A DNA stretch of 64,000 nucleotides from an uncultured Candidatus Saccharibacteria bacterium. GTDB taxonomy: Bacteria > Patescibacteriota > Minisyncoccia > Phycocordibacterales > UBA918. The notes beneath the pieces were generated by a model. It made no database searches, was not told the DNA's origin, and worked only from the letters and a program-made list of their open reading frames with translations. The translations under genes and the position numbers were made by a program. This document shows, piece after piece, positions 10,939 through 55,704 of this stretch. The first letter of the stretch is position 1. Every line of letters starts with the position of its first letter. The stretch spans positions 182,578-246,577 of the forward strand of contig CAYGKO010000001.1 in assembly GCA_964350735.1 (NCBI GenBank), written 5' to 3'.

Positions 10939-11601
10939 ATGGTTCGGAATGAAGAAAAGTACCAATTAGCAACACATTATCGCAAACAGGGTTTTACCTA
11001 TGCTGAAATAGCTAAGATCTGTGGGGTGAGTAAGAGTACGGTGAGTGCCTGGCTCGCTGGTAAGCGTTTTTCGAAGCAGGTGAAGCAGGATAACCAGGTA
11101 CGCGCCGGTAAAGCCAATGCTAAGCGAGTGGCTTTAGTTCAGAAAGCCCGGCAGACAGAACGGACTACTCGCTATAAAGAAGCAGTTCGTTCCGCTGAGA
11201 CTGAATACAAGCACTATAAGAGTAACCCGCAGTTTATCGCTGGCTTGATGTTGTACTTGGCTAAGGGTGATCACAATGATCCGTCACAAATTCGCCTGAC
11301 AGGGCAAGATATAACCACTCACCGCATCTTCCGAACGTTCCTAATGGAGTATTTAGGAGTAGAAAAGCAAGCGGTGCGATTTTGGCTCTTGTTGCCGAGT
11401 AATGTTTCAGAAAAGGCCACTCAAAATAGCTGGAGTAAAGTACTAAAGCTCCCTGCTGGCCAGTTCGGCAAGACGCAGGTTTTAAAACAGGAGGCCAAAA
11501 GATTGCACAATGGCACGGGAAATACTATAATCGGCAACACTGTTTTGAAGCACAAGCTCATCAAATGGATCGAGTTGGCAACAAAAGAGCTAAGTAAATA
11601 G
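10939..11601 (+). CDS. HTH domain protein
   Basis: N-terminal GFTYAEIAKICGVSKSTVSAWLAG is an HTH. The rest is basic and unassigned. Confidence 0.4.
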   Translation: MVRNEEKYQLATHYRKQGFTYAEIAKICGVSKSTVSAWLAGKRFSKQVKQDNQVRAGKANAKRVALVQKARQTERTTRYKEAVRSAETEYKHYKSNPQFIAGLMLYLAKGDHNDPSQIRLTGQDITTHRIFRTFLMEYLGVEKQAVRFWLLLPSNVSEKATQNSWSKVLKLPAGQFGKTQVLKQEAKRLHNGTGNTIIGNTVLKHKLIKWIELATKELSK

Positions 11602-11678: not shown

Positions 11679-11802
11679 AAAACTTCCCCCAGTAGGGGGA
11701 TTTTGTGTGTTTAGAGACAGGGTGTTTGTACTCGTTGCCCCAAATTGAAAATTTGTCTATTTTGTAACCTTCAGCTCTGCAATCTGGTATCATAGGGTAC
11801 TT

Positions 11803-12954
11803 ATGGCACGAGTTGCGATTACGGAGTATGCGGCTAAAAAATTAGTCTTTGGTGATAGGTATCACGGGCTGACCGTTACGCCACAGAGTCTAGCTGATTT
11901 TTCGGTCCCCGCTGGTGATTACATTGTAAAAATTGACGTTGGGATCAAAAAACGAGGTAAACAAAGCTTAGTTCGACTTAACGTAGCTGCAAAAGATGTG
12001 CCTTCAGCAGCTAATGAGCTTTTTGCGCTTGGCTACGGTCGTTGTGTCGTGGAGGTGATGGTGCCACATAAAACAGATGCGGAGCGATATCTTTCACTCG
12101 ATGTACACCGCACTGGCTTGCAGTTGATCCACTCTGAAAAAGGCGGGGTGGAGATTGAGGCGGCGGCTGAAGCTGATATCAAGCGGACACTCGTACCTTT
12201 GCAGGAATTCTTGAGTGACACACCGTTGATCGAGATCGACGGTGTGTCACTCCCCTACTTACTCGAGCAGATGGCGCGGTATCACTTTTCGTTTATGGAG
12301 ATAAATCCCTATATTATCGCTGATAATACGTTGATTGCTCTTGATATGGCGGTTGAGATTGATTCAACTAAAGAAAATAAGCTGCCAGCGTGGGTACATG
12401 AACATATTTTGCATAAAAAAGCGGCCAGTGAGCAAGAGGCGCGGGTGCTTGAACAAGATGCGCGCACTCAAGCCGCCCTTAATTTACATACCCTTAATCC
12501 AGACGGTTCGATCTTGACCCTTTTGTCTGGGGGTGGCGCCAGTTTAGTCGGTCTCGATTCTCTCGTCACTGCTGGTTTACAAGCAGAGGTGATTAATTAT
12601 AGTGAGTATAGTGGCGCTCCGACACGCGACGAAACGGCTGCGTATGTCAGCACCCTCCTTGAAGTGTTGTTTAATTCTACCGCTAATACTAAAGTTATTT
12701 TGATCGCCGGTGGGGTGGCAAATTTTACTGACGTCCTGGCTACCTTCCAGGGAATTGTTGATGCGTTTACTGACAATCTTGAACAATTACAGGCGCAAAA
12801 CGTGTATGTCTGCGTCCGGCGTGGTGGTCCGAACCAAGAGAATGGCTTGGCCCACCTGCGTAACTGGCTTGATGAGCATGATATTCCTAATGATGTCCAC
12901 GACCCTTCCCTGTCGCTTGGTGAAGTTGGTAACTTGGTAAAAGCACATATATGA
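11803..12954 (+). CDS. aclB: ATP-citrate lyase beta-like subunit (ATP-grasp, SucC-like)
   Basis: Long collinear similarity to the ACLY N-terminal region: FMEINPY, LNPDGSILTLLSGGGASLV, NYSEYSGAPT, ILIAGGVANFTDVLATFQGIV, VCVRRGGPNQENGL. Confidence 0.7.
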   Translation: MARVAITEYAAKKLVFGDRYHGLTVTPQSLADFSVPAGDYIVKIDVGIKKRGKQSLVRLNVAAKDVPSAANELFALGYGRCVVEVMVPHKTDAERYLSLDVHRTGLQLIHSEKGGVEIEAAAEADIKRTLVPLQEFLSDTPLIEIDGVSLPYLLEQMARYHFSFMEINPYIIADNTLIALDMAVEIDSTKENKLPAWVHEHILHKKAASEQEARVLEQDARTQAALNLHTLNPDGSILTLLSGGGASLVGLDSLVTAGLQAEVINYSEYSGAPTRDETAAYVSTLLEVLFNSTANTKVILIAGGVANFTDVLATFQGIVDAFTDNLEQLQAQNVYVCVRRGGPNQENGLAHLRNWLDEHDIPNDVHDPSLSLGEVGNLVKAHI

Positions 12955-14675
12955 TAAACGAGATTCGAAATGGTGAGCCGAAGATTTTAGTAGCGGGTAA
13001 TCACGTGAAGATTATCCAGTCTATTCTTGATTTTGACTACGCAGCGGGGAAAGAATCACCGAGTGTGGTGGGGATTATTTCGGCCGGTCGCAAAAGCCAG
13101 AAGCTTTTCTGGGGTGATGGCGAGGTCTTGGTGCCGGTAGTGCCCGACGTTGAGGCAGCAAAAAAGTCTGCATTTGAGCCAGATTTCCTGCTTTGTATCA
13201 CTTCAGCTTCAAGTACACCACGGATGGCCAAAGCCTTTTTTACCGCCTTTCCGGCGGCTGTCGGCGCCCATCTCTTTGCTGAAGGGGTGGCCGAGCGCGA
13301 TGCCCTTCAGTTGATCGAAGCGTATGGCGAAGAGAAGCTTATTCTCGGTGCTTCGGGGGTTGGTCTTTGTGTACCAGGCAGCCTTAAACTAGGCGCTATT
13401 GGCGGTGTTTTAGGGGCTCGTCTTGCTGAGCTCGGTCGGACACGAGGTCACACGGCGGTGATCTGTAGTTCTGGAGGCATGGTCAACGAACTCATGTACC
13501 AAGTAGTGACGGCTGGTAGTGGAATTAGTTTCGCTGCCTGCTATGGTGGTGACCGTTTCCCGGTCACTTCCCCGCTACAATGGCTCATGCACGCTCAAAA
13601 TGACCCAGAGACTAAAGATATTGTCTATTTCGGTGAACTAGGTGGTGATGATGAATATACGCTCCGAGGCGCCATTACAGCTGGCGATATCACTAAGCCA
13701 GTCTATGCCTATATTGCTGGCCGCTACGAAAGTCAGGATGAAACCATCCAATTTGGCCATGCCAAAGCCCTCGCTAAAGCTGAATCTGAGACAGCAGCGG
13801 CTAAAATGGCTGCTTTGGCTGCTGTTGGAGTGAACGTCAGTGATACTTTTAATGATTTTATGGCAGCTTTTACTTTGCTTTCACGTGAAACCAGTGTTGG
13901 CGAGTCAGTTCGGGACTGGAGTGAACGCCCGGCTCATCTACAGCCGACCGCCTACTCAGCTCCGGCTTATACGGGTGCCCATTCGGCCAGCTTTACCGAA
14001 GGTATTTTGGCTCGCATTCTCGGTCGCAGCAGTGTTTCACGGGAAACCGCTGCCTTTGCTGAACTAATCTTTGCGCAGTTGATCGATCATGGACCACATG
14101 TGTCAGGAGCGGTAAATACCATGATCACTACACGAGCTGGCCGTGACCTTAGCTCAGCCCTGGCTACAGGTGTTCTGACGGTTGGTGATCGCTTTGGTGG
14201 CGCTATCAACGGTGCTGCTCAGATTTGGCACGATGCTGTTTCACGTGGCATCACTGCCGATGATCTGGTGACAGACTACAGCCAGCAGCGCCGTTATATT
14301 TTAGGTATCGGACACCGAAAATACTCAGTGTATAAGCCAGATCCGCGCGTACAAGCCTTGATTGAGCATGGTAAAAATGTTCTACGTGAAACACCGCACC
14401 TTGATTTTGCCTTGTCAGTTGAGACAATCACCGCTAAAAAGCGCGCTAACCTGATTTTGAATGTGGACGGTGTTATTTCGGCTCTATTTACAGACTATTT
14501 GATTGCCAAAGAAGACTTTACAGCGAAAGACATCGCTGAACTTATTGATATTGAATTCTACAATGCCTTGTTTCTCATTCCTCGTTCAGTAGGGTTTGTT
14601 GGAAATTACCTGGATCAAAAGCGGATTGACGAGGGATTATTCCGTTTGGGCGACAAAGATAGCTATAATTTTTAG
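12951..14675 (+). CDS. aclA: ATP-citrate lyase alpha-like subunit (CoA-binding SucD-like plus citrate-synthase-like domain)
   Basis: LDFDYAAGKESPSVV, catalytic-His motif QFGHAKA, and citrate-synthase-like HGPHVSGAVNTMITTRAGRDL...VGDRFGGA...ILGIGHR...ILNVDG...GFVGNYLDQKR. A 4-nt overlap with aclB suggests translational coupling. Confidence 0.7.
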   Translation: MINEIRNGEPKILVAGNHVKIIQSILDFDYAAGKESPSVVGIISAGRKSQKLFWGDGEVLVPVVPDVEAAKKSAFEPDFLLCITSASSTPRMAKAFFTAFPAAVGAHLFAEGVAERDALQLIEAYGEEKLILGASGVGLCVPGSLKLGAIGGVLGARLAELGRTRGHTAVICSSGGMVNELMYQVVTAGSGISFAACYGGDRFPVTSPLQWLMHAQNDPETKDIVYFGELGGDDEYTLRGAITAGDITKPVYAYIAGRYESQDETIQFGHAKALAKAESETAAAKMAALAAVGVNVSDTFNDFMAAFTLLSRETSVGESVRDWSERPAHLQPTAYSAPAYTGAHSASFTEGILARILGRSSVSRETAAFAELIFAQLIDHGPHVSGAVNTMITTRAGRDLSSALATGVLTVGDRFGGAINGAAQIWHDAVSRGITADDLVTDYSQQRRYILGIGHRKYSVYKPDPRVQALIEHGKNVLRETPHLDFALSVETITAKKRANLILNVDGVISALFTDYLIAKEDFTAKDIAELIDIEFYNALFLIPRSVGFVGNYLDQKRIDEGLFRLGDKDSYNF

Positions 14676-15922
14676 CCATGGAGTTTCCTGGTAGGAACTA
14701 AATACCCAGCCAGGGCGTTTGTTTATCATAAAAAGGCGTGTACCATGGTTCCACATGGAACAGATACTTCTGGCAGCTGGTATTTTCTCGTTTATTTTCG
14801 GATTAGACTATTTACGCTACCTGCTCTTCCCCGCTACCTACCGGTATGTTTCATATGAAACATATATTTTGTATATCATTGGCGTAGTGGCCACGTTTGT
14901 AGTATTTATCGATGAAATCAGTCTTTTTATCGGTGATCGGTTACACGTGGAACTGATTTACTTGTTCATTCTCTTTTTTACGGCCCTGGGGTGTTCAATT
15001 GCCATGAAACGCCACGGTGTGAACATTTGTACGACAATACTTCGATCATATAAGTGTATTTCCCCACTGTACGTACTTATAAAGACCAAAGAGCTTTTAC
15101 TCCAACAGACCTTATTTGTAGTACTAGCTGTGGGTGTTTCACGTGAAATCGGAACTGGTTTTTGGGCAGTACTCACCTTTATATTAGTTTCACTCTTGGT
15201 TCAAATACCGATAATGTTGCATGTGAAACACTTTTGGCGCTACTTATACCTAGGAATAATGGGGTTTGCTAGTGTTATTTTCTTTTATACCTATGTTTCT
15301 CTAGAATTATTCTGGCCAGCAATGTATGTACATGCGGTTATCTATACGTTTATCTGGCTTTCACTGGCTGATCCATCCGATGATTGGGGGTAACTGTGGA
15401 AAACTAAGTGGATAGGTGGATAAAGGACAGGTATTTAAAATATTTAAAAATTATGAATATGCCTATAAATAAGGGTTTAAGTAAAATATGTGTCTTTTTA
15501 TCGAAATAAGAACCAATATGTTTCACGTGGCACATACATATATTGTTCCATATGAAACAAAGTGATAAAAAAGGCTCTAAGAACCAAGTGGGTGCATATG
15601 GTGAGGAGATCTGTGTACAGTACCTGAAGAATAAAGGGTTTAAGATCCTCGGTGTTAATTACCTTAAAAAATGGGGTGAAATTGATGTAATTGCGAAACA
15701 AGGAAAAGTGGTTCATTTTGTGGAAGTGAAGACTGTTTCATATGAAACTAAAGTGACACTAGAAGAAGCAGTTTCACGTGGAAACTGGCGTCCGGAAGAA
15801 CAAGTACATGCCTTTAAGCTCAAGAAGCTTAGTCGGGTGATAGAAATTTGGCTGCTAGAACAAGCTTGGGAAGGAGAGTGGCAGATTGATGTCGCTGCAG
15901 TACGTATTGTGCCACGTGAAAC
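13878..15922. repeat. cluster of 11 parS-like palindromes (consensus GTTYCAYRTGRAAC, matching the ParB/Spo0J site tGTTtCAcGTGAAAcA)
   Basis: Hand-located sites: 13878-13891, 14034-14047, 14748-14761, 14848-14861 (perfect), 15136-15149, 15216-15229, 15520-15533, 15545-15558, 15735-15748 (perfect), 15771-15785, 15909-15922. Confidence 0.65.
14755..15393 (+). CDS. polytopic membrane protein, hypothetical
   Basis: Highly hydrophobic ORF. The tracked start is TTG at 14719, and the ATG start MEQILLAAG at 14755 is preferred. It contains several parS-like sites. Confidence 0.4.
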   Translation: MEQILLAAGIFSFIFGLDYLRYLLFPATYRYVSYETYILYIIGVVATFVVFIDEISLFIGDRLHVELIYLFILFFTALGCSIAMKRHGVNICTTILRSYKCISPLYVLIKTKELLLQQTLFVVLAVGVSREIGTGFWAVLTFILVSLLVQIPIMLHVKHFWRYLYLGIMGFASVIFFYTYVSLELFWPAMYVHAVIYTFIWLSLADPSDDWG

Positions 15923-15965
15923 ATACGCCACGATGAAATATATCCCTAATATTATAGCTGATTAG
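15543..15965 (+). CDS. YraN/UPF0102-family endonuclease-like protein
   Basis: GEEICVQYLKNKGFKILGVNYL..GEIDVIAKQGKVVHFVEVKT matches the YraN consensus. Four parS-like sites are embedded. Confidence 0.55.
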   Translation: MFHMKQSDKKGSKNQVGAYGEEICVQYLKNKGFKILGVNYLKKWGEIDVIAKQGKVVHFVEVKTVSYETKVTLEEAVSRGNWRPEEQVHAFKLKKLSRVIEIWLLEQAWEGEWQIDVAAVRIVPRETYATMKYIPNIIAD

Positions 15966-16427: not shown

Positions 16428-16498
16428 CGGGGTGTAGCATAGTGGTAGTGTACGCGCTTTGGGAGCGTGTGGTCCGGGTTCGATTCCCGGCTCCCCGA
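16428..16498 (+). tRNA. tRNA-Pro(UGG); no encoded CCA
   Basis: Acceptor CGGGGTG/CTCCCCG with one T-T mismatch. Anticodon stem CGCGC/GCGTG with loop TTTGGGA. T arm CCGGG-TTCGATT-CCCGG. Resembles E. coli tRNA-Pro. An 11-bp-arm hairpin (16404-16429) abuts the 5' end, and a terminator hairpin lies at about 16510-16535. Confidence 0.65.
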
Positions 16499-16556
16499 CA
16501 AATTAAGCAAAAGAAAAGCACCGTTAGGTGCTTTTCTTTTGGTATACTGGAGCGAT

Positions 16557-17438
16557 ATGGAACTATGGTTTTGGGCGGCGGTAGCAACCACTGTTTTAGC
16601 AGGACTAAGTAACTTTTATTTTAAGGTGGCAGCAAGTCGTGGTTATGATGCGGAACTGTTTGGTCTGTACGGTGGAGGGTTATCACTCGTTTTGGTGCTA
16701 ATAGGCTGGTTAACCTTCCCGGCTCCTTTGCTAGCGCAAGGGTTTATGTATGCTGCCTTGGCGTTTGGAGGTGGTTTATTAATTTCAGGCAATAACATTG
16801 GTAAAATCTATGCCTTGAGACATATTGATGCCACGGTGTATTATCCACTGTATAAGCTTCTCGCACCTTTATTGGCGATTGTAGCCGGTGTTACGTTCTT
16901 CAGTGAAAGATTCAGTACTTTTGAATGGTTCGGTATGACATTAAGTTTGTTAGTGCCTTTGATGCTTATTACAAAATCAGAGAATGGGCGTCAGAATAAT
17001 TTAATTAGTGGACTGCTACTTGTTCTAATGACAGGTATATTTTCAGCAGGAGGGGCTTTTTTATATAAATTAGCTAGTGATGCTGGTATGGCGACAGTAG
17101 CGATACTTTTGTATTCCTCAACAGGACTACTAATCGGTTCTTTGTTGACTATGTGGTACAAGTCAGGTATTAAAAATATCAAATTGAGAATTTTTGAAAA
17201 TACTAGTGTGGGCTTATTAATTGCAGCTAGTATGCGAGCGACATTAATTACGCTGGCCTTTGTTTGTACATTGTTTGCTTTTAAATCAAATGGGCCATTT
17301 GCTGTAGTGATGACAATTCAATCAATGTATATTTTGATCCCGATTGTGTTAGCAATTATTTTCTACAACGAACACTGGAATGCTCAAAAGGTTGCAGCGA
17401 TACTATTGTCGGTAGCCGCTTTGGCTCTTTTGGGATAA
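16557..17438 (+). CDS. EamA/DMT-superfamily transporter
   Basis: About 10 TM segments with duplicated EamA-like halves. Start reset to MELWFW because the tracked N-terminus runs over the tRNA and its terminator. Confidence 0.5.
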   Translation: MELWFWAAVATTVLAGLSNFYFKVAASRGYDAELFGLYGGGLSLVLVLIGWLTFPAPLLAQGFMYAALAFGGGLLISGNNIGKIYALRHIDATVYYPLYKLLAPLLAIVAGVTFFSERFSTFEWFGMTLSLLVPLMLITKSENGRQNNLISGLLLVLMTGIFSAGGAFLYKLASDAGMATVAILLYSSTGLLIGSLLTMWYKSGIKNIKLRIFENTSVGLLIAASMRATLITLAFVCTLFAFKSNGPFAVVMTIQSMYILIPIVLAIIFYNEHWNAQKVAAILLSVAALALLG

Positions 17439-29040: not shown

Positions 29041-29111
29041 CGCGGGATTAGTTAAATGGTATAACATCTGCCTTCCAAGCAGAGGTCAGGAGTTCGATTC
29101 CCCTATCCCGC
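29041..29111 (+). tRNA. tRNA-Gly(UCC); no encoded CCA; integration target
   Basis: Acceptor GCGGGAT/ATCCCGC, anticodon stem TCTGC/GCAGA with loop CTTCCAA, T arm AGGAG-TTCGATT-CCCCT. The 3' 26 nt overlap the integrase ORF. Confidence 0.75.
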
Positions 29112-30567
29112 ACATAGTTGAAAAATCAGCATTCTTAGGGGTCCTTGCGAGCATATCGTAAGGACTTTTAAGTTGTGGTTGAGCCATTTTCTTATCTTTG
29201 AGCAAGGAGTTCGAAAGTACCTCATAGGCCATTTCTCGTTTACGCTCTGGAATTGCTTTCAAATACCTAGATTTGGCTCTACTACTGGCTATAAATAGCT
29301 TTTTTGTACGTTCGAGAGTAACTAAAGGGTCTTGGGTATTTTGTTTGAGATTGTTGAGGGATTTTGTCAGTGCGATACGGCTATGTTTAATTTCTGCCTG
29401 CTTTGCCTCATACGTTTCTTTGTTGATGCTCTCAGCTAGATACGTATCAAGTAGTTTATTTTCACGGACTTTGAGTATATCCAATTCACGCTGTGTGTTT
29501 TCAAGATGAGTTGTGTCTAATTCTCCCTCATGCTCAAGTTTTTCCAAAGCTGCTTGGTACATGATTTCTATCAGCTCCTCATCAAAAGCAATATCATCAA
29601 AGATTGAGACAAATTGCTCTTCTAATTTCTCTTGGCGCAAGAATAGCCGTTTTTGGTCGCAGATACCTTTTCCATTAGTGCAGTGGTAGTAGATGTACGT
29701 TTTTTGTTTTTCAGCAGTGACAGCGCAGCCACAGACACCACAGGTGTATAAACCAGTAAGAGGGAAGACGTGTTTTTGAGTCCGTGGCTTAGAACCGCCG
29801 GTCATGACCGTTTGGCATTGGTCGTAGAGGTCTTTAGTGACGATGGTATCAAAGCTCGCTTCGTAGTATTTTCCTGAATACAGTATCACACCGTGATAAA
29901 TAGGATTCTTGAGAATGCGTTGAATCGGCCCACAGTGTACTTTCTTGCCAGAGCGGGTGCGCATGCCTTTGTCATACATGTGGCCAGCTAATTCACGGAT
30001 GCTGTAGAGACCAGTAGCGTAATGCTCATACATCATGCGGACATACTCACCACGTACAGGGTCAATGTATAAAGTCTTGTCTACTTTGTTATTGAGATAG
30101 CCAAAGGGTGCGTTACAAGGCCAACCACCCTGACTGAGTTTTTGACGATTACCCCGCTTCACGTTTTCGGATAAATCACGAGAGTATTGGTTAGCCATAC
30201 CAAGCTCCACCGCCATCATAAGGACGTTGTCTGAGGGTAGGTATTCTTTCTCGTAGGTCTGGATGCTTTTGAGAACGTTGCGTTGTAGTAGGTCAATGAT
30301 TAGTCCGCCATCAATAAAGTTGCGAGCCAGTCTGTCTAGTTTCCAGCAGAGAAGACCGTCAGCTTTGCCAGCTTGAATTTGCTGCATAACGTTATTGAAT
30401 ACTGGACGCCCGACAGTCTTGGCGGACATACTTTCATGGTAGACGGCGGTAATTTCAATACCAAGGAGAGCAGCTGTTTCTGTTAGCTCACGCTCTTGTG
30501 CATCGAGGGACTGGATTTGTCTGTCCTCAGACTCTTGTGACTTTCGGCAGTAGAGGATGTATTTCAT
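29086..30567 (-). CDS. large serine recombinase (integrase)
   Basis: N-terminal resolvase catalytic domain (YCRKSQESED...SLDAQ...DRLARN), recombinase domain, Cys-rich zinc ribbon (CGVCGC...HC) and coiled-coil tail. 493 aa. Confidence 0.8.
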   Translation of the reverse strand: MKYILYCRKSQESEDRQIQSLDAQERELTETAALLGIEITAVYHESMSAKTVGRPVFNNVMQQIQAGKADGLLCWKLDRLARNFIDGGLIIDLLQRNVLKSIQTYEKEYLPSDNVLMMAVELGMANQYSRDLSENVKRGNRQKLSQGGWPCNAPFGYLNNKVDKTLYIDPVRGEYVRMMYEHYATGLYSIRELAGHMYDKGMRTRSGKKVHCGPIQRILKNPIYHGVILYSGKYYEASFDTIVTKDLYDQCQTVMTGGSKPRTQKHVFPLTGLYTCGVCGCAVTAEKQKTYIYYHCTNGKGICDQKRLFLRQEKLEEQFVSIFDDIAFDEELIEIMYQAALEKLEHEGELDTTHLENTQRELDILKVRENKLLDTYLAESINKETYEAKQAEIKHSRIALTKSLNNLKQNTQDPLVTLERTKKLFIASSRAKSRYLKAIPERKREMAYEVLSNSLLKDKKMAQPQLKSPYDMLARTPKNADFSTMCGIGESNS

Positions 30568-30580
30568 ATGCTATTCATAG

Positions 30581-31413
30581 TTAGCGTGTCTTTAGACTAT
30601 ACAAACTCCGCATTTCAGACAACTGTTCAGGACTCAGATTGTATGTTGCACAAAAAGTTGGGTTTTCTATAACAGGACGTTTTTTTGATGGTTTGGTAAT
30701 GTATGCGTATAGTGATTTATGGTCAGCGAGATAGTCCATAATCTCTCCCGCTATGTGTTCATGAGAAATAACCTCTGGTTTGTATAGACCTCGACTGGAG
30801 AAATATTTCTTCCTACCGACCAATCGTTTATCGAGCGCATCCTTAGTCATGTATTTTGTCATATATCTACCTACGTTCGGTATTTTGCTGACATTCTTTT
30901 TCTTGATATGGCCATGCTCCCAAATAGAAGCAAATTCTCCAGTATTAAATTCATGCCTAGCGTTAATCTTCGGGAGATTAAAGAAGACTGCATGATAGTG
31001 GACTGCTCCACGTTTTTGAAACTCTGGGACTGCAACATATTTTACAATTGATTCTTTAGTGCCGTACGTATGATAATTCAAGCGTTTAATATAATTTGTG
31101 AAGAGAGTATTTGCAGTCGCTATATCTTTAATGTTTTCATGAATCGTGTAGGTTAGAAATTGAGGTTGAATTATTACTTCAAACTCATCCAGCCACATAC
31201 GAGAATTAGCGTTTATTAGCCTAATGAGTGCATTTCTTGTACGACTCAAAGAACTTTCACTGGTGACTTGTTCAGCCAACATTCTCCTTTTACGGTATGG
31301 TGCCTGTTTTTTACTTGAAAGAAGGTCGTAGCCGATTGCTTTAGTAAACTGCTGGGCCTCAACAATGTGACCTGAAATAATTATTTTGTAGTGACTGACT
31401 CGTGGTTTTGCCA
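30581..31413 (-). CDS. rep: rolling-circle replication initiator (HUH endonuclease, phage CRI/Rep-type)
   Basis: HUH motif HYHAVFF and catalytic-tyrosine motif VGRYMTKYMTK (YxxKYxxK). Start reset to MAKPRV. Confidence 0.6.
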
Positions 31414-31746
31414 TAAATAGTTTCGAATTATGTGTATATAAAATCAAGTCACTTTCTGCTCCGCAGAAAGGCCGGCATCGGCCTTTCGCCTCACCCCACG
31501 AGGGGGCGAGGGCGAGACGAAAGCCGCTCCCGACCCACCCCAACCGTTTGAGGAAAAGAAAAAGATATATATAGTTGCGAGAACGAGGCTAGGTGTAGCT
31601 GCGCTTGTTCGCAGGAAATAGACACCGCATGTGTATCTAACATGTACCGCTTATACCGTGTGACTAATTCATTACTAAATTCCATTAACTACAGAATACA
31701 AAAAGACCCCGAGCTAACTCGGGTCAAAGTAGGGTTAGTTTTAACA

Positions 31747-32430
31747 CTAATTTAGGTACTTAGGATTAACCTTTATCGCACCATTCTCAGTGCTTCCAAA
31801 ATCTAGAAATGCACTAATCTTGTCTTCAGTATGTTTCTGTACAGCTTTATTTAAATTTTTACACGCGTTGATATATGTACTAGCTTCAACGTCTGAGTCA
31901 TAAACACCTTCGTTACGAAGTTCAGCATAAGAATATTCATTTTCTGTACCGTTTTCAAAAATATGTTTCAAAATAAAGTGGTGGACAGGTTTATTTTGTC
32001 TTCGAGAAACTGGAATAGTGAGACCTCTCACACTTAGTACGCTGTTTTCAATATCATACTCAAGCTCTTTGGTACTAATCTCCTTGAGAGGTACACCATT
32101 ACTTAGCTCACGATAAATTTTCCAAGGGTTGCCTAAAACCCACAACTCAAAACGTAAGTCTGGCTCTTCTAGCTGTCTAGGTGTAATTTCACCGTGCTCA
32201 ATTAGCTGCATTTCATTCTCGTGATCAACTGGTTCTGATGAGTACCGAAACTCAAATACTTCTAAGGGAGCCAATTCAGCTAGAGTAGTATTGAAGCTGT
32301 GGAAGTTCATACCAACACCTTGAATATCTAGGTCCCTAATGTAAATCACTGGAAAATCAGACTCCTCCTTTTCATTTTGATATAGCTTGCTGATGATTAC
32401 CTCAAGCACTTTGATGAGTTTTTCACCCAT
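31747..32430 (-). CDS. hypothetical protein, co-directional downstream of the XRE regulator
   Basis: 227 aa and AT-rich. A terminator hairpin lies downstream at about 31705-31730. Confidence 0.4.
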   Translation of the reverse strand: MGEKLIKVLEVIISKLYQNEKEESDFPVIYIRDLDIQGVGMNFHSFNTTLAELAPLEVFEFRYSSEPVDHENEMQLIEHGEITPRQLEEPDLRFELWVLGNPWKIYRELSNGVPLKEISTKELEYDIENSVLSVRGLTIPVSRRQNKPVHHFILKHIFENGTENEYSYAELRNEGVYDSDVEASTYINACKNLNKAVQKHTEDKISAFLDFGSTENGAIKVNPKYLN

Positions 32431-32435
32431 AGTGT

Positions 32436-32642
32436 CTATACTAAATCTTTAATATCAACTTTTAAGGCTTTGGCGAATTTCTCCATACTAGTAAGAGTGA
32501 TGTTTTTCTCACCACGCTCAATCATTCCAACATAGGTGCGGTGTACTTTCGCTAGCTCGCCAAGACGTTCTTGAGACAGGTCACGCTCATCACGTAAACA
32601 TCGAACGCGCTTACCAAACTTTTTGAGTAGAGGTGATTTCAT
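32436..32642 (-). CDS. XRE-family HTH transcriptional regulator (Cro/CI-like)
   Basis: LRDERDLSQERLGELAKVHRTYVGMIERGEKNITLTSMEKFAKAL is a canonical HTH_XRE. Confidence 0.7.
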   Translation of the reverse strand: MKSPLLKKFGKRVRCLRDERDLSQERLGELAKVHRTYVGMIERGEKNITLTSMEKFAKALKVDIKDLV

Positions 32643-32697
32643 TACATACAGCGTATGTAATTGCTAACTTTGATTCTACATACTATAGTTAGCACAT
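32643..32697. promoter_or_regulatory. divergent promoter/operator region with inverted repeats TACATAC-AGC-GTATGTA and TGCTAACT...AGTTAGCA
   Basis: Seen directly between the XRE gene and the GIY-YIG gene. Confidence 0.35.
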
Positions 32698-32976
32698 ATG
32701 CATTGCTACGTGTACATAGTTGAGTGCTCAAATGGAGGACTCTATACTGGAATAACTAAGAATTTACGTAAGAGATTAAACCAACACAATGGTTTTCTGA
32801 AAGGTGGAGCGTATTACACGCGTATGCATCGACCGGTTAAATTTGTTCATATTGAGCGTTATTCAAGTAGGAAATTATCAAGAGAGCGTGAATTGGAGAT
32901 ACAATCATGGGAGCATGATGCAAAAATTGGCCTGATTGCAGGAACATCAAAAGAGCAAATCATCTCGTCTATTTAA
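32698..32976 (+). CDS. GIY-YIG nuclease family protein (small, UPF0213-like)
   Basis: CYVYIVECSNGGLYTGITKNLRKRLNQHN carries the GIY...YIG motifs. 92 aa. Confidence 0.6.
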   Translation: MHCYVYIVECSNGGLYTGITKNLRKRLNQHNGFLKGGAYYTRMHRPVKFVHIERYSSRKLSRERELEIQSWEHDAKIGLIAGTSKEQIISSI

Positions 32977-33001
32977 TATTGTTGACAGCGAAGGCACATA
33001 G

Positions 33002-34252
33002 TTGCAATATATCTATATGGCAACAGGCTCTATTGAAAAAAATGAAACTAGAAAGGGAGTGACGGAATTTTTTTATGTACTAAAAGAAGGGGATTCTGAG
33101 TTGCACAGGAATAAGATATTTATCGTAGATACAGTAAAATCACAAGTAAGGATGTTTCCGACAAATGCCGGCATCCCAGAAGTTGTTTTTGAAAACAGAA
33201 CTAAAGTGCCTCTAGCGCTTGTTACCGATAAGGCAAAATTTATAGCTGGTAGTTTTATTCAATATAGATTGACTAAGGAAAATATAACAATAAAAAAGAT
33301 TGTTATTGATAAAGGAATTAAAGATAGGATTGATAAGAAAACAGGAGTTTTATACCTAGAATATGAAAAACTTTTAAAGTTTAAAAAAAGACTTGCAAGA
33401 ATAACCCAGGATGCAAAGGATGATAAGTCACTAGAAGCTGATTTCTATGTTCATGATATTTTGCCTGAACACTTTAATGATCCCGATGGTGTAGGAAATT
33501 CAGTTTCAAAAAAGTTATCGAGTATATTCGACAATCTAACAGAAGATATTATTGAACATATTCCCAGAAAAAATGTCGACGAGTTATTTGAGTTTGTTAG
33601 CACTATCTTGGATAAACGGTACAAAACAGCTAAAGATAAAAAACGCCTATTGGAGTTTGTAAGAATTAAAGTTAATGAAAAACCCATTGAAGAACTAATA
33701 GGTGAATTTGAGAAAAACATTAAGGATGTTGTATCTGAAAGTGATTGGTCTAAGTTTATTAAACGTAATCTATTTTTGATTGACCCTAATTACGTTAAGC
33801 ATTACCCAGAACTTGGTGTGACTCTTGGTATTAAAATTCGTAAGGTTGATTTTGGATTGCTCGATGTTCAATCAAACTTAGATATTTTCGAAATAAAGAC
33901 AGACAGGACTCAATTGCTTGCAACAGGAGAAGACAGGGGTAATCATTATTGGAGTACGGCTGCTATAAAGGCAATTACCCAGGCAGAAAAGTATTTGTAT
34001 AATGCTGAAAGAAATGCAGACTCGTTAGAGAAGGCTCTTTTAAGAGAGACAGCTGATGAGGTTAATGTTGTAAGGCCTAGAGTTATACTTTTAATGGGTA
34101 ATAGCAGGCAACTTAAAACAAAAAATCAGAAAGAAGATTTTAGGGTTTTAAGAAAATCGCTAAAAAATATTGAGATTGTCTTGTATGACGAATTATTAAG
34201 TAAACTAACTGGTCTGAAAGATAAAAAATCTTTGTTTGGAAGTAATGAGTAA
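33002..34252 (+). CDS. Shedu-like (DUF4263) putative PD-(D/E)xK nuclease with a unique N-terminal domain
   Basis: C-terminal VDFGLLDVQSNLDIFEIK (D...E-x-K core) and the terminal NIEIVLYDELL motif are recalled as typical of DUF4263. About 32% GC. Lies 26 bp downstream of the GIY-YIG gene. Confidence 0.4.
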   Translation: MQYIYMATGSIEKNETRKGVTEFFYVLKEGDSELHRNKIFIVDTVKSQVRMFPTNAGIPEVVFENRTKVPLALVTDKAKFIAGSFIQYRLTKENITIKKIVIDKGIKDRIDKKTGVLYLEYEKLLKFKKRLARITQDAKDDKSLEADFYVHDILPEHFNDPDGVGNSVSKKLSSIFDNLTEDIIEHIPRKNVDELFEFVSTILDKRYKTAKDKKRLLEFVRIKVNEKPIEELIGEFEKNIKDVVSESDWSKFIKRNLFLIDPNYVKHYPELGVTLGIKIRKVDFGLLDVQSNLDIFEIKTDRTQLLATGEDRGNHYWSTAAIKAITQAEKYLYNAERNADSLEKALLRETADEVNVVRPRVILLMGNSRQLKTKNQKEDFRVLRKSLKNIEIVLYDELLSKLTGLKDKKSLFGSNE

Positions 34253-34275
34253 ACTTATAATAATGTACTGAAAAT

Positions 34276-34923
34276 ATGAATATAAACGACATCTACCTTA
34301 AATATAGAATTAATAAAGGTTTACGAGAGCATATGGTCCGAGTGGCTGCTGTTGCTCAGCTTATCTGTGATAAGTCCACCGTTGAGCTTGATGCCAAAAA
34401 CATAGTTACTGCGTGTCTTCTGCATGATATGGGTAACTTAATTAAAGCTAAGATGGACAGCATGCCAGAATTGTATGAGCCGGAAGGTGTAGCTTACTGG
34501 ACACAAGTGCAAGCTGAGATGATAGAGAAATATGGTGCTGATGAGCATACAGCCACTGTAGATATTGTAAACGAGATTGCTCCAGGAGATGAAGTTTTGC
34601 ATTATGTTTTTGACGCTATCGGTACAGAAAATACTGCCAAGGTCCACGTAGATGAGTCATTGGGTGCTAAAATTGCTACATACAGTGATATGCGCGTTGG
34701 TCCTTTTGGAATCATCAGTATAAAAGAGAGAATGGATGACCTTAGAGTCAGATATATTTCTCGGAATAAGCCTGGATTTTCAGCAGAAGATATCGACCAA
34801 AGAGAACAAATGCTCGAAGATATCGAAAATGTAATATTTGCCAGCTCTACTATTACCGCAAGCGATGTGACAGATGAGTCAACGCAGTTGCTACAAGAAA
34901 ACCTTCTCAATTGGGAGATCTAA
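34276..34923 (+). CDS. HD-domain phosphohydrolase
   Basis: H..H (HMVRVAAVAQ) and HD (ACLLHDMG) motifs. Confidence 0.55.
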   Translation: MNINDIYLKYRINKGLREHMVRVAAVAQLICDKSTVELDAKNIVTACLLHDMGNLIKAKMDSMPELYEPEGVAYWTQVQAEMIEKYGADEHTATVDIVNEIAPGDEVLHYVFDAIGTENTAKVHVDESLGAKIATYSDMRVGPFGIISIKERMDDLRVRYISRNKPGFSAEDIDQREQMLEDIENVIFASSTITASDVTDESTQLLQENLLNWEI

Positions 34924-34934
34924 CGCTGTAAATA

Positions 34935-34963
34935 GGTTCAAACATCGTCCCGCAAACCGCACA
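34935..34963 (+). repeat. repeat R1 (GGTTCAAACATCGTCCCGCAAACCGCACA), tRNA-3'-end-like, plus downstream hairpin
   Basis: Copy 1 of 3 direct repeats. It begins 12 nt after the HD gene stop. Confidence 0.5.
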
Positions 34964-35082
34964 CGAGATTTAAGCGCCAGCAATGGCGCTTTTGCTGTTT
35001 GAGAGTTGAGAATAATATTGACTACACAGCAATATTATGCTATAATCCTATTCAGGAATTCATCAAGACATAGGAGGTTCTG

Positions 35083-48963: not shown

Positions 48964-49186
48964 AATTCTTTAATTACTATATAAAGGAGTATTCTCCGTG
49001 TGTGTAATGTATTACTAACAATGCGCGGCCGAGGGCCGCGCATGTCAGTCAATGAACCTACTCTACTGGTTTTGGTGGTACTTGTCAAAATGTGCAAAGC
49101 CGGAGCGTTATGGTTGAGTGGCAATGGTACAATGTAGTCACGACAAAGCTCTACAGTTCTTTGGTTCGTTTATTTTTTGGAGAATC

Positions 49187-50935
49187 GTGCGTATTCAAGA
49201 TGCACAACTAAAACGGTTTGTTACTGATTCTGGTCTGGTGACCAAGAAGGATTTAAGTGCGGCCGAGAAAGTAGCTAAAGAAGAAAAACGAACCTTAGCT
49301 GAAGCCCTGGTAGCTGCCGGTTACATGAGTGAAGATGATATGCGCCGAGTGGAGTCATACGTACTTGGGATCCCGTTTGTATCACTTAAAGACATCAAGA
49401 TTGATTTTGAAATCCTTTCGATGATCCCGGAACCAGTGGCTCGTAATCACAATATTATTGCCTTCAAGAAGCATGATGATGCACTTGAGGTAGCAATGCT
49501 CGATACCGCTGACTTGCCAGCCATTGATTTTGTGAAGAAGAAAGTAGGATTAAAGATCCAGCCGCGCCTGACTGACACTGAATCGATGCGAAGTGCGTTG
49601 CAGCAGTACCAAAAGACACTCAAAGATGAGTTTGGTGACATCATCATGAAGGAGACCTCAGCCTTGAAGGTGATTGCAGAAGAAAATGGTGAAGAAGCGA
49701 GTGAAGAAGATCTAAAAAAGATGGCTGAAGATCTCCCGGTAGTACGTATCGTTGATACGCTGCTGCGGCACGCTATTATTCAAGGTGCCTCTGACATTCA
49801 TATCGAACCGATGGAGAACGAAGTGTTAGTGCGGTATCGAATCGACGGTATTTTACATGACGCGATGACGCTTCCGAAGCATGCGTCAGGGACTATCGTG
49901 GCCCGTCTCAAAGTCCTCTCCAACCTAAAGCTTGACCAAAAGCGCCTTCCGCAAGACGGTCGATTTAAGATGGAAATGGATGGGCAGAAGGTATCGTTTC
50001 GAGTCTCAATGCTGCCAATTTACTACGGCGAAAAAGTAGTAATGCGTCTGCTGCGCGAAAATCGATCTGGTTTTAACCTAGAAGGCATTGGCTTTCATGG
50101 TAGTACACTCGAACGAGTACATGGTGCGATGAAGCAAACTACCGGCATTATTTTAGTAACGGGACCAACCGGGTCGGGTAAAACTACTACGCTCTATACT
50201 ATTCTTGATCTTTTAAATACCCCTGAGGTAAATATTTCTACGATTGAGGATCCAATCGAGTACCAAATGCCCCGCATCAACCAGACGCAAGTAAAGTCTG
50301 ATATTGGTTTTACGTTTTCTTCTGGACTACGTTCCCTGATGCGACAAGATCCAGACATTATTATGGTGGGAGAAATTCGTGATCAAGAAACTGCCGCGTT
50401 AGCAATTAATGCTGCCCTGACTGGGCACTTGGTGCTCGCGACTGTGCACACCAACTCGGCGGCAGGAACCGTAGCCCGTTTGATGGACATGGGGGTGGAG
50501 TCATTCTTGCTGGTATCAACCCTGCGGGTGGCTGTTGGGCAACGACTCGTGCGAAAATTAGGTGATTCACGAGAGACCTATACGTTGTCTCCAGCAGAAC
50601 AAGCTGAGTTGGCAAAGCACGCTGATCTTGATGCCGTGCTCGAAGCGATGAAAGAAGAAAAAATTGTAAAAGGTAATGCCACCTGGAATTCAATTCCGTT
50701 TTATCGACCAACTGCAGATGCTGGCGATGATGCGTATAAAGGACGGTCAGGTATTCATGAGGTTTTGACCGTGACTCCAACAATCAAAGATATGGTGATG
50801 AAGAAAGCGACAGCTGATGATATTGAGGATCAGTGTCGCAAGGAGGGGATGCTTACTATGCTTGAGGACGGCATTTATAAAGCTGCGCGCGGGGTTACTT
50901 CGGTTGAAGAGGTGCTTAGAGTCATTAATGAATAG
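49187..50935 (+). CDS. pilB: type IV pilus assembly ATPase PilB / GspE family
   Basis: T2SSE N-domain, Walker A VTGPTGSGKTTT, Asp box and His box. GTG start with a GGAGAA SD is preferred over the tracked upstream ATG. Confidence 0.8.
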   Translation: MRIQDAQLKRFVTDSGLVTKKDLSAAEKVAKEEKRTLAEALVAAGYMSEDDMRRVESYVLGIPFVSLKDIKIDFEILSMIPEPVARNHNIIAFKKHDDALEVAMLDTADLPAIDFVKKKVGLKIQPRLTDTESMRSALQQYQKTLKDEFGDIIMKETSALKVIAEENGEEASEEDLKKMAEDLPVVRIVDTLLRHAIIQGASDIHIEPMENEVLVRYRIDGILHDAMTLPKHASGTIVARLKVLSNLKLDQKRLPQDGRFKMEMDGQKVSFRVSMLPIYYGEKVVMRLLRENRSGFNLEGIGFHGSTLERVHGAMKQTTGIILVTGPTGSGKTTTLYTILDLLNTPEVNISTIEDPIEYQMPRINQTQVKSDIGFTFSSGLRSLMRQDPDIIMVGEIRDQETAALAINAALTGHLVLATVHTNSAAGTVARLMDMGVESFLLVSTLRVAVGQRLVRKLGDSRETYTLSPAEQAELAKHADLDAVLEAMKEEKIVKGNATWNSIPFYRPTADAGDDAYKGRSGIHEVLTVTPTIKDMVMKKATADDIEDQCRKEGMLTMLEDGIYKAARGVTSVEEVLRVINE

Positions 50936-50937
50936 TT

Positions 50938-52167
50938 ATGTCTAAATTCACGTATACAGGCGAAGATACAGCGGGTAACAAAGTAACCGAAACAGTAGAA
51001 GCGGCAGACCGTTACGCAGTATATGAGGTGGCGCGTAAAAGTGGTCACAGTGTGGCTAGCATTACTGATGCTGGAGGTGGGGGCCTGAAGCAATTTTTGA
51101 ATGTTGAAAAGATCGAGTACATGATCAGTCGGGTGAAAGATGATGAGGTAGTAATGACGACTCGAAATCTTGGCTCAATGCTTGTCGCTGGACTGCCACT
51201 TTCGCGGGCGCTTTCTGTGATTGAGCGACAGAGTACAAACCCTAAGCTAAAAGGGGTGCTTAAAGATGTGCGAGAACAAATTGAGAAAGGAGAGCAGTTT
51301 AACGCGTCGTTGGCAAAGTATCCTAAGATTTTTAGTGATCTCTACGTATCGATGGTCAAAGCAGGAGAGGAAAGTGGAATGTTGGCAGAGTCTCTAAGCA
51401 CACTCGCATTGCAGATGGAGAAAGCCTCTAATTTAAAAAAGAAGATTAAAGGAGCGATGATGTACCCAGCCATAGTGATTGTGATCATGGCAGTAATTGG
51501 GGTATTGATGATGATTTATGTGATGCCATCTATTACTGGTACGTTTACAAAGATTGGAGTTGATCTGCCGACGACGACAAAGATCTTGATCGCTACTAGT
51601 AATTTTATGGTAGAGCACACCTTCTTAGTGATTGCGGGAATGATTGGCTCGGTAGTAGGATTTTTGTACGCCCTACGTACAAAATATGGCAAGATTGTCT
51701 TTCATTGGATCATTATCCATTTACCGGTGATTGGGACGTTGGTAAAAGAAACTAACGCTGCCCGAACAGCGCGAACGCTTTCGTCACTCCTTCATTCAGG
51801 GGTAGATGTAATTCGCTCATTAAATATTACTGAAGAGGTAATTCAAAATGTGTATTACAAACCAATTATTAAAGAAGCCGCCACTCGAGTGGAGAAAGGG
51901 ACGGCTTTGTCTGAAACGTTTATTGAAAACAATAAACTTTTCCCTGTATTGGTAGGAGAAATGATTTTAGTAGGAGAAGAAACCGGCCAGATTGCCCAAA
52001 TGCTTGAGCAGCTGGCGACATTTTATGAAACCGAAGTGGAGAATAAAACCAAGGACCTTTCGACAATTATCGAGCCACTGTTGATGGTGGTGATTGGAGG
52101 TACGGTTGGATTCTTTGCGCTCGCTATGATCGCGCCGATTTATTCGATTGGTGACAGTATTGGGTAA
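50938..52167 (+). CDS. pilC: type IV pilus platform protein PilC / GspF family
   Basis: Duplicated T2SSF domains with three TM segments. Confidence 0.75.
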   Translation: MSKFTYTGEDTAGNKVTETVEAADRYAVYEVARKSGHSVASITDAGGGGLKQFLNVEKIEYMISRVKDDEVVMTTRNLGSMLVAGLPLSRALSVIERQSTNPKLKGVLKDVREQIEKGEQFNASLAKYPKIFSDLYVSMVKAGEESGMLAESLSTLALQMEKASNLKKKIKGAMMYPAIVIVIMAVIGVLMMIYVMPSITGTFTKIGVDLPTTTKILIATSNFMVEHTFLVIAGMIGSVVGFLYALRTKYGKIVFHWIIIHLPVIGTLVKETNAARTARTLSSLLHSGVDVIRSLNITEEVIQNVYYKPIIKEAATRVEKGTALSETFIENNKLFPVLVGEMILVGEETGQIAQMLEQLATFYETEVENKTKDLSTIIEPLLMVVIGGTVGFFALAMIAPIYSIGDSIG

Positions 52168-52171
52168 AACT

Positions 52172-55087: not shown

Positions 55088-55089
55088 CT

Positions 55090-55704
55090 ATGAAAAATTT
55101 TTACTCATCAGTTATGAAGAAGGGAATGTCACTCGTTGAGATGTTAGTGGTGGTGGCTCTGTTTACTATTCTGTCACTGGCGATTACAAATTCGATTGAT
55201 TCATTTTATAAATTTAATTCATACACCATTGCTCAGTCCTATCAAGTGAGCGAGGCGAGGCGAGGGTTACAAAACTTGATTCGCGACATTAGAGAAATGA
55301 CGTATGCAGATGACGGAGCGTTTCCGCTTATATCTCGTGGAAGCACAACCATTTCTTTTTATAGTGATATTGACCGTGATGATAGTGTGGAATTAATCGA
55401 GTATGAGCTGGCAACCACAACACTCTATAAGAACATTTATGACGCCGTTGGTTCGCCACCAATTTACAACACGTCACCCAGTGAGACGATTATCATTTCT
55501 CGGTATGTACAAAATAATTTACAAGGAACCGAAATATTTAATTATTTTAATGAGGGTGGTTTACAGGCTACATCCACAACGCTCGTGACTGACATTAGAT
55601 ACGTTGGTGTTAATCTGATTATAAACATTGATCCAGTTCGAGATCCCGGAGAATTCTCACTACGTTCTAGCGCGTCACTCCGTAACTTGATTGAAAATTT
55701 ATGA
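55090..55704 (+). CDS. minor pilin / pseudopilin with prepilin-type N-terminal domain
   Basis: KKGMSLVEMLVVVALFTILSLAI. Confidence 0.6.
   Translation: MKNFYSSVMKKGMSLVEMLVVVALFTILSLAITNSIDSFYKFNSYTIAQSYQVSEARRGLQNLIRDIREMTYADDGAFPLISRGSTTISFYSDIDRDDSVELIEYELATTTLYKNIYDAVGSPPIYNTSPSETIIISRYVQNNLQGTEIFNYFNEGGLQATSTTLVTDIRYVGVNLIINIDPVRDPGEFSLRSSASLRNLIENL

Follow-up and report, generated by a model that had tools for sequence, protein, structure and literature searches.

What does a gene pair for ATP-citrate lyase (ACL) do in a small-genome bacterium of the Candidate Phyla Radiation (CPR), and does the pair really encode this enzyme? Here we report an analysis of aclB and aclA, which lie at positions 11803-14675 of a 64,000-nucleotide stretch of DNA (the window) from an uncultured Candidatus Saccharibacteria bacterium (assembly GCA_964350735.1, contig CAYGKO010000001.1). 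Judged by sequence, the pair is a genuine, intact heteromeric ACL (EC 2.3.3.8). The reading that we favour, with a probability of roughly 60%, is that of a functional ACL of a CPR clade that most likely cleaves citrate from a host or the environment into acetyl-CoA, which would serve acetylations, and oxaloacetate; a role in the reductive tricarboxylic acid (rTCA) cycle is unlikely because the window holds no other enzyme of the tricarboxylic acid (TCA) cycle. The initial annotation of this locus had offered both citrate cleavage to acetyl-CoA and the rTCA cycle as explanations, of which the former is backed by gene context and the latter found no support.

The first gene, aclB (11803..12954, forward strand), encodes the ACL beta subunit of 383 aa with an ATP-grasp and a citrate-binding domain; the second, aclA (12951..14675, forward strand), encodes the alpha subunit of 574 aa with CoA-binding/ligase domains and a C-terminal citryl-CoA-lyase or citrate-synthase-homology (CSH) module. 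The two open reading frames (ORFs) are on the same strand and overlap by four bases (ATGA), through which aclA is predicted to be translationally coupled to aclB. The positions of both ORFs and their ATP-grasp, CoA-binding and citrate-synthase-like domains had been annotated before; the coordinates proved exact and Pfam agrees, with PF16114 (Citrate_bind, 160 bits) in AclB and with Ligase_CoA, Succ_CoA_lig and a C-terminal Citrate_synt domain (residues 338-557) in AclA. Alignments likewise confirmed the proposed collinearity of both ORFs with human ACLY and two-subunit ACLs. AclA carries the lyase module, which citryl-CoA synthetase (CCS) and succinyl-CoA synthetase (SCS) lack, as a C-terminal fusion that aligns with residues 871-1086 of human ACLY. 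Among related loci, aclB was located directly 5' of aclA in 15 of 15 cases (tblastn), and both genes were present in all 82 non-duplicate loci of a neighbour survey.

Both subunits were compared with all sequences in the Protein Data Bank (PDB). AclA matched human ACLY (E-value 2e-95, 324 bits), the two-subunit ACLY of Methanosaeta concilii (8.5e-86, 292 bits) and the ACL of Chlorobium limicola (8.8e-53, 183 bits), and the best match of AclB was ACLY-A of M. concilii (5e-42), followed by human ACLY (9e-41) and C. limicola (3e-31). The corresponding values were 7e-17 for citryl-CoA lyase (CCL), 2e-14 for the small subunit of CCS and 1e-11 to 4e-19 for SCS alpha (all with AclA), and 2e-14 for the large subunit of CCS with AclB. 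The solved CCS, CCL and SCS chains scored 52-72 bits, compared with 183-324 bits for the ACLs. The NCBIfam/TIGRFAM cut-offs for SucC and SucD were also missed (beta, 58 bits vs. 370; alpha, 96 bits vs. 336). An identity as CCS/CCL was rejected on the grounds of the fused rather than separate lyase, the low scores (56-65 bits for 6hxq and 6hxp) and the position in the phylogenetic tree; an identity as SCS was rejected because of the presence of the lyase module, scores far below the cut-offs and, again, the tree position.

Structures were predicted with AlphaFold from family alignments, and folds were compared with Foldseek. The AclB model (pLDDT 92.9) had its best fold match in ADP-bound human ACLY (5tdm_A, E-value 3.6e-35). 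The AclA model (pLDDT 86.6) is of low confidence only at the C-terminus and at the His loop (residues 259-274), a mobile loop for which this is to be expected; the ligase half of the model fits 5tdm_B at 2.0 Å, and the CCL module fits human 6hxl at 3.0 Å with 44% sequence identity. ACLY was the top match for both models, and CCS and SCS scored at least 10 orders of magnitude worse.

Catalytic and ligand residues were mapped by alignment to human ACLY, and their conservation was determined over 120 full-length AclA and 51 AclB homologues. The phosphohistidine loop motif QFGHAKA, already recognized in the initial annotation, is encoded at 13749..13769 on the forward strand (AclA residues 267-273), and its His270 aligns with human His760; Q267, G269, H270, A271, K272 and A273 were invariant in 53 sequences. 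Further correspondences between AclA and the human enzyme are E111 (E599), H380 (H900), H455 (H975), R466 (R986), D506 (D1026) and R545 (R1065); together with H270, these residues are invariant among the AclA homologues, except for E111, which is present in 119 of the 120. In AclB, the ATP-grasp residues K43, R51 and E94, the EINP motif at 166-169 (with N168) and D181 of the LD motif are invariant, and so are R339 and the five residues G271, N307, F308, T309 and R340. The latter correspond to human G309, N346, F347, T348 and R379, which we take, partly from PDB 3MWD, to be the citrate ligands of ACLY. A loss of catalytic residues, which had been named as a sign against ACL, is not seen in the alignments, where all are present and fully or almost fully conserved. 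The functions of H760, E599, D1026, H900, R1065 and F347 in ACLY have been described (PMC10115795).

Phylogenetic analysis by neighbour joining (NJ; 586 trimmed columns, 100 bootstraps, SCS-alpha/CCL-type fusions as outgroup) yielded 100% support each for the Saccharibacteria family, its crown subclade (which holds the window), its deep subclade, the wider CPR clade and the Chlorobium type. A group made up of the CPR clade and the ACLY-like sequences, without the Chlorobium type or the outgroup, received 96% support, and the window enzyme is thus bracketed by experimentally established ACLs. In this tree, which was built by NJ rather than maximum likelihood and without true CcsAB or SCS sequences, the enzyme is placed inside ACL and not among SCS or CCS.

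The contigs with the nearest relatives (AclA identity from 94%, on a contig of 450 kb, down to 66%) belong to metagenome-assembled genomes (MAGs) that are mostly labelled Candidatus Saccharibacteria, in agreement with the earlier designation of the host as CPR-like. The AclA family falls into more than 100 clusters (46-100% identity), and 275 relatives with the clade motif were found in JGI metagenome contigs. The next relatives among 50%-identity representatives are a protein of Candidatus Dojkabacteria and, further out, one of a DPANN archaeon. The gene order HTH-aclB-aclA-UPF0102-CorA is kept across the crown clade, which argues for stable vertical inheritance. An ACL had been considered unexpected in such an organism; this view has to be tempered, since one Saccharibacteria clade carries aclBA widely and inherits it stably by vertical descent, other CPR have the pair as well, and it is already in print (PMC6851277; PMC12577380).

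An AclA identical to that of the window is on record (P0001), on an NCBI contig of 408 kb, and the best match of AclB in the protein collection was 88% identical; in the closest relative, divergence is greater in AclB (88% identity) than in AclA (94%). The representative library also contains many fused single-chain ACLY-like proteins of about 920-1130 aa (P0145, P0147, P0150, P0157, P0162, P0166, P0174-P0176, P0185 and P0209), which are very AT-rich, rich in Asn, Lys and Ile, and form groups of their own in the NJ tree.

The gene neighbourhoods of the relatives suggest a use for the product. The AclA proteins of the deep subclade of the Saccharibacteria family are 46-51% identical to that of the window and 51-67% identical among themselves. 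In this subclade, aclB is directly flanked by a gene for an OatA-like protein of about 650 aa (Acyl_transf_3 + SGNH), co-directional or divergent depending on the locus, with Wzy_C and MurB downstream and NeuB, CMP-sugar synthetase and a HAD gene upstream of aclBA. In one locus (L014), aclBA is situated between a CMP-sugar synthetase gene and a NeuB-cupin gene; in another (L015), a phosphohexomutase gene overlaps the start of aclB, GlmS is 5.8 kb away, and a GT4 gene and Bac_transf are nearby. The survey of the 82 loci, in which three ORFs on each side of aclBA were clustered and representatives scanned, identified a HAD-like hydrolase (16 loci) and a GNAT of about 145 aa (14 loci) as the commonest immediate neighbours, followed by UPF0102 (10 loci, crown clade only), AT3-SGNH (8), GlmS (7) and Wzy_C (7). 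An acetyltransferase of the GNAT or AT3-SGNH (OatA-like) type is directly beside aclBA in 21 of the 82 loci, an adjacency that spans at least six wider gene orders and both orientations; the count rises to 28 when GlmS within three genes is included. GNAT and AT3-SGNH belong to two unrelated superfamilies that have the use of acetyl-CoA in common. Such acetyltransferases make up about 1% of the genes of a CPR genome, by estimate rather than computation, and on that estimate the adjacency, which is partly inherited, is far above chance.

The GNAT neighbour (140-172 aa; best match RimI, below every NCBIfam cut-off) was observed in 14 metagenomic CPR loci with several outer contexts (L031, L034, L044, L045, L053, L057, L064, L066, L068, L076, L084, L085, L093 and L095). 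The HAD-like hydrolase (about 200 aa, without an NCBIfam match; L035, L036, L042, L043, L047-L051, L062, L073, L077, L078, L082, L087 and L091) sometimes occupies the slot of the GNAT in otherwise identical gene orders.

If the enzyme works like ACLY, to which it is homologous, ATP bound in the ATP-grasp domain of AclB would phosphorylate His270 of AclA, and the phosphate would move to citrate held by G271, N307, T309 and R340 of AclB. Attack by CoA would give citryl-CoA, which would be split into acetyl-CoA and oxaloacetate with the aid of E111 and the CSH module (H380, H455, D506, R545). The citrate would stem from the host or the surroundings, the enzyme would run in the direction of cleavage, and the acetyl-CoA may be spent on the acetylation of amino sugars, nonulosonic acids and peptidoglycan and on GNAT targets. 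The physiological logic is likely shared with the eukaryotic cytosolic ACLY, where citrate carries acetyl units for acetylation and biosynthesis. More tentatively, and at less than even odds, the CPR enzyme might not serve carbon fixation but be the supply half of a conserved module leading from citrate to an acetyl donor, which would be genomically coupled to small GNATs, OatA-like AT3-SGNH proteins and the pathways for amino sugars and nonulosonic acids. If true, ultra-small episymbionts would take citrate from their host or community as an acetyl carrier for building and decorating their envelope.

The analysis documents gene integrity, family membership, residue conservation, predicted fold, phyletic distribution and gene neighbourhoods; enzyme activity, flux direction, citrate import and the acetyl-CoA sink we infer. 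Several points weigh against a functional, citrate-cleaving ACL. The ACL reaction is reversible, and ACL may not be the only source of acetyl-CoA. A recognizable citrate transporter was not seen in the window, which holds only a generic EamA/DMT gene (16467-17438). No NCBIfam model names AclB or AclA, which gave only sub-threshold matches to SCS, CCL and citrate synthase; the Pfam match of AclB to the ACL ATP-grasp family PF24948 (Citrate_synth_N; 68.6 bits) is below the cut-off of 83 bits, and NCBI records label such proteins 'hypothetical protein' (JGI: 'ATP citrate (pro-S)-lyase'). The sequence GHAKA, a clade-specific variant of the usual GHAGA of the His loop, is a departure from canonical ACLs, the equivalent of human R976 is variable among AclA homologues (R, K or L), and that of human Y364 is Asn in AclB and variable in the clade. 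The argument for an acetyl-CoA sink is borrowed from relatives of 42-59% identity, and many of the aclBA neighbourhoods are inherited and thus not independent. The most serious weakness is that, in the clade to which the window belongs, the acetyltransferase neighbourhood has been lost; the neighbours in the crown clade are an HTH protein, UPF0102 and CorA, and no acetyltransferases.

The textbook role of bacterial AclBA is CO2 fixation by the rTCA cycle, of which ACL is the usual marker, and annotation pipelines file the enzyme under 'Arnon-Buchanan cycle' (PMC12577380, supplementary table). For the locus described here, we regard this role as highly improbable: the carriers of the gene pair are Saccharibacteria and other CPR of small genome size, in the tree the clade stands apart from the enzymes of Chlorobium-type autotrophs, and no partner enzymes turned up in the regions scanned. 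Pfam scans of 60 ORFs around aclBA in the window (94 aa or longer) detected no other enzyme of the TCA or rTCA cycle, as the initial annotation had stated, and the flanks of related loci annotated with Pfam likewise contained none. In the window, the scans did identify TIM and PGK of glycolysis, along with housekeeping genes and the cluster for a type IV pilus. The enzyme might also run in reverse, from acetyl-CoA and oxaloacetate to citrate and ATP, as a substitute for citrate synthase or in a short branch to 2-oxoglutarate and glutamate. In Desulfobacter postgatei, ACL has been described as an ATP-conserving stand-in for citrate synthase. In vitro, ACLY can convert acetyl-CoA and oxaloacetate to citryl-CoA (PMC10115795), neither a citrate synthase nor a citrate transporter was seen in the window, and TIM and PGK could feed pyruvate. 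Nevertheless, this direction would require oxaloacetate in stoichiometric amounts, and a cycle that could regenerate it is lacking. The window revealed no aconitase, isocitrate dehydrogenase or enzyme that forms oxaloacetate, and the recurrent adjacency to acetyl-CoA consumers better fits the production of acetyl-CoA. We consider the reverse direction rather unlikely.

A drift in substrate, with another hydroxy-tricarboxylate or a dicarboxylate giving rise to a different acyl-CoA that decorates surface glycans, would accommodate the GHAKA loop, the unconserved equivalents of human Y364 and R976, and the location of genes within clusters for nonulosonic acids and glycans, where unusual acyl donors are common. 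It is made doubtful by the invariance of the citrate ligands (G271, N307, F308, T309, R340) and of the lyase residues (H380, H455, D506, R545), and by a CCL module that is 44% identical to the human one. There is hardly any room for contamination, a recent transfer or decaying pseudogenes without a role, even though one related contig (L003) is labelled gammaproteobacterial and the G + C content is 0.50 at 12-14 kb, compared with about 0.45 for the window. Both ORFs are intact with invariant active-site residues, synteny is kept at 64-94% AclA identity on contigs of up to 450 kb, and a clade-conserved array of parS-like sites inside the coding sequence argues for long chromosomal residence. 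Because of the conserved synteny and the invariant active sites, this explanation was rejected.

Among characterized systems, the pair most resembles eukaryotic ACLY and the M. concilii enzyme (6hxh, 6hxi, 6znw), with which it shares the domain order, identical catalytic His, Glu and CSH residues and citrate ligands, and a domain-wise superposition of the predicted models; the subunits are split as in M. concilii. It differs from them in its low identity (about 31-33% for the full AclA chain, 44% for the CCL module, about 27% for AclB), its shorter subunits (383 + 574 aa vs. about 420 + 615 aa), the replacement of GHAGA by GHAKA, the lack of conservation at the positions of R976 and Y364, and its placement in a separate CPR clade with 100% support. 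The AclBA of C. limicola (6hxj) has the same aclB-aclA two-gene layout and the same chemistry but is more distant than ACLY (183 vs. 324 bits), forms a separate clade with 100% support, and works in a full rTCA cycle, of which there is no sign at the window locus. CcsAB and Ccl of Hydrogenobacter thermophilus (6hxq, 6hxp; 56-65 bits) have homologous domains and carry out the same two chemical steps; however, their lyase is a separate protein, whereas that of the window is fused to the alpha subunit.

The presence of ACL in CPR and in Saccharimonadia is not new and is known at the level of annotation. A Gracilibacterium (BD1-5) without a TCA cycle carries aclAB, described as 'rarely detected in CPR', and its enzyme was predicted to cleave external citrate, with acetyl-CoA and oxaloacetate as the products (Sieber et al. 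2019, PMC6851277). That enzyme, compared here by its description and outside the NJ tree, has the canonical GHAGA and was described as most similar to archaeal proteins, and in contrast to its reported rarity, the clade of the window is common, with its 275 relatives in JGI contigs. In groundwater MAGs of Candidatus Saccharimonadia, aclAB was found to be enriched (3 of 11, vs. 0.5-5% in other CPR classes; PMC12577380, published in 2025); the entry is a KEGG-level tally under 'Arnon-Buchanan cycle' without analysis of sequence, context or function. A preprint of 2022 deals with mis-annotated citrate-cleavage genes in CPR and DPANN. Our literature search returned nothing relevant that links ACL, TM7 or peptidoglycan O-acetylation in Saccharibacteria. 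What appears to be new is how large and coherent the GHAKA clade is, where it stands in relation to ACLY, and that it is coupled to acetyltransferase and glycan genes.

ACL genes are routinely counted as evidence for the rTCA cycle in metagenome surveys. A large ACL clade in non-autotrophic CPR with small genomes inflates such counts, and its members should be read differently. If citrate cleavage is correct, citrate would be a metabolite that hosts or neighbours provide to Saccharibacteria and other CPR and that is linked to envelope acetylation, which could guide cultivation. A compact, divergent ACL with greater similarity to the ACLY of eukaryotes than to the enzyme of the Chlorobium type is also relevant to the history of the enzyme.

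The 3' third of aclA has a second property. A search of the whole window for 16-mers with up to three mismatches to the parS consensus TGTTNCACGTGAAACA gave 27 strand matches, compared with 2.4 expected by chance, and all but one fall within 13877-15923. They represent about 14 parS-like sites in 2 kb, from the 3' third of aclA to 1.25 kb downstream; outside this array, the only further match in the window is at position 3, with three mismatches. The initial annotation had noted that the first such sites are hosted by the 3' end of aclA, and four of the roughly 14 are indeed located there (13877..14393; sites 13877, 14033, 14237 and 14378, found by pattern search). They translate in frame as LSRET, VSRET, VSRGI and VLRET. 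The array continues with 10 sites (14747-15923) in 14719..15965, across the gene for a membrane protein of 224 aa and a UPF0102/YraN-like gene.

Among the 20 loci with an AclA of 59% or higher identity to that of the window, 17 carried sites of this kind (up to two mismatches), in each case confined to aclBA itself and the 2 kb downstream of it, with none elsewhere in flanks of about 10 kb; the more distant loci had only five parS-like sites in 1.18 Mb. In some of the array-bearing relatives (L001-L008, L011, L013, L019, L020, L022-L024 and L026), the array begins already in aclB. Within aclA of the crown clade, the sites are at fixed offsets and read as VSRET, VSHET or VLRET, and the deeper homologues have unrelated peptides and no parS-like sites at the same offsets. 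The in-frame sites at fixed positions suggest that a putative DNA-binding site shapes the protein sequence, and their location inside aclA would mean that the predicted centromere-like array of the chromosome is written into a metabolic operon. A ParB gene was not seen in the window. Gene orientation flips from the reverse to the forward strand near 4.1 kb, where the cumulative GC skew has its minimum; both would fit an origin of replication a few kilobases upstream of the parS-like array. The window contains no cluster of DnaA boxes (11 matches vs. 14.5 expected), and a dnaA gene was not found in it.

Upstream of aclBA, the neighbours are an HTH_23 protein and tRNA-Gly. The former (220 aa; 10939..11601, forward strand; Pfam) is possibly a regulator and is a conserved upstream neighbour of aclBA, being encoded 5' of aclB in nine related loci with 52-70% identity. 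The intergenic region (11679..11802, forward strand) comprises a terminator-like hairpin 3' of tRNA-Gly (11684-11700, terminator scan) and then a candidate extended -10 element (TGgTATCAT, 11785-11793, read by eye), nine nucleotides before the ATG of aclB, which may be part of an aclB promoter. A sigma-70 promoter scan around the operon gave results no better than shuffled sequences. Downstream of aclA follow the ORF for the 224-aa membrane protein (14719-15393), the UPF0102/YraN-like gene (15543-15965), tRNA-Pro, the EamA transporter gene and CorA. The G + C content of the 12-14 kb stretch is 0.50, compared with about 0.45 for the window as a whole.

The type IV pilus reported in the initial annotation is encoded at 49118-57116 (Pfam); the competence genes reported along with it were not recovered as such in the Pfam scans, which detected only RecJ. 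A probable integrated mobile element is located beside tRNA-Gly(tcc) at 29042-35000, where the G + C content falls to 0.36-0.41; it contains genes for a large serine recombinase (29086-30567, reverse strand), a Rep protein (30581-31543, reverse strand) and a Shedu SduA-type nuclease (33002-34252, forward strand).

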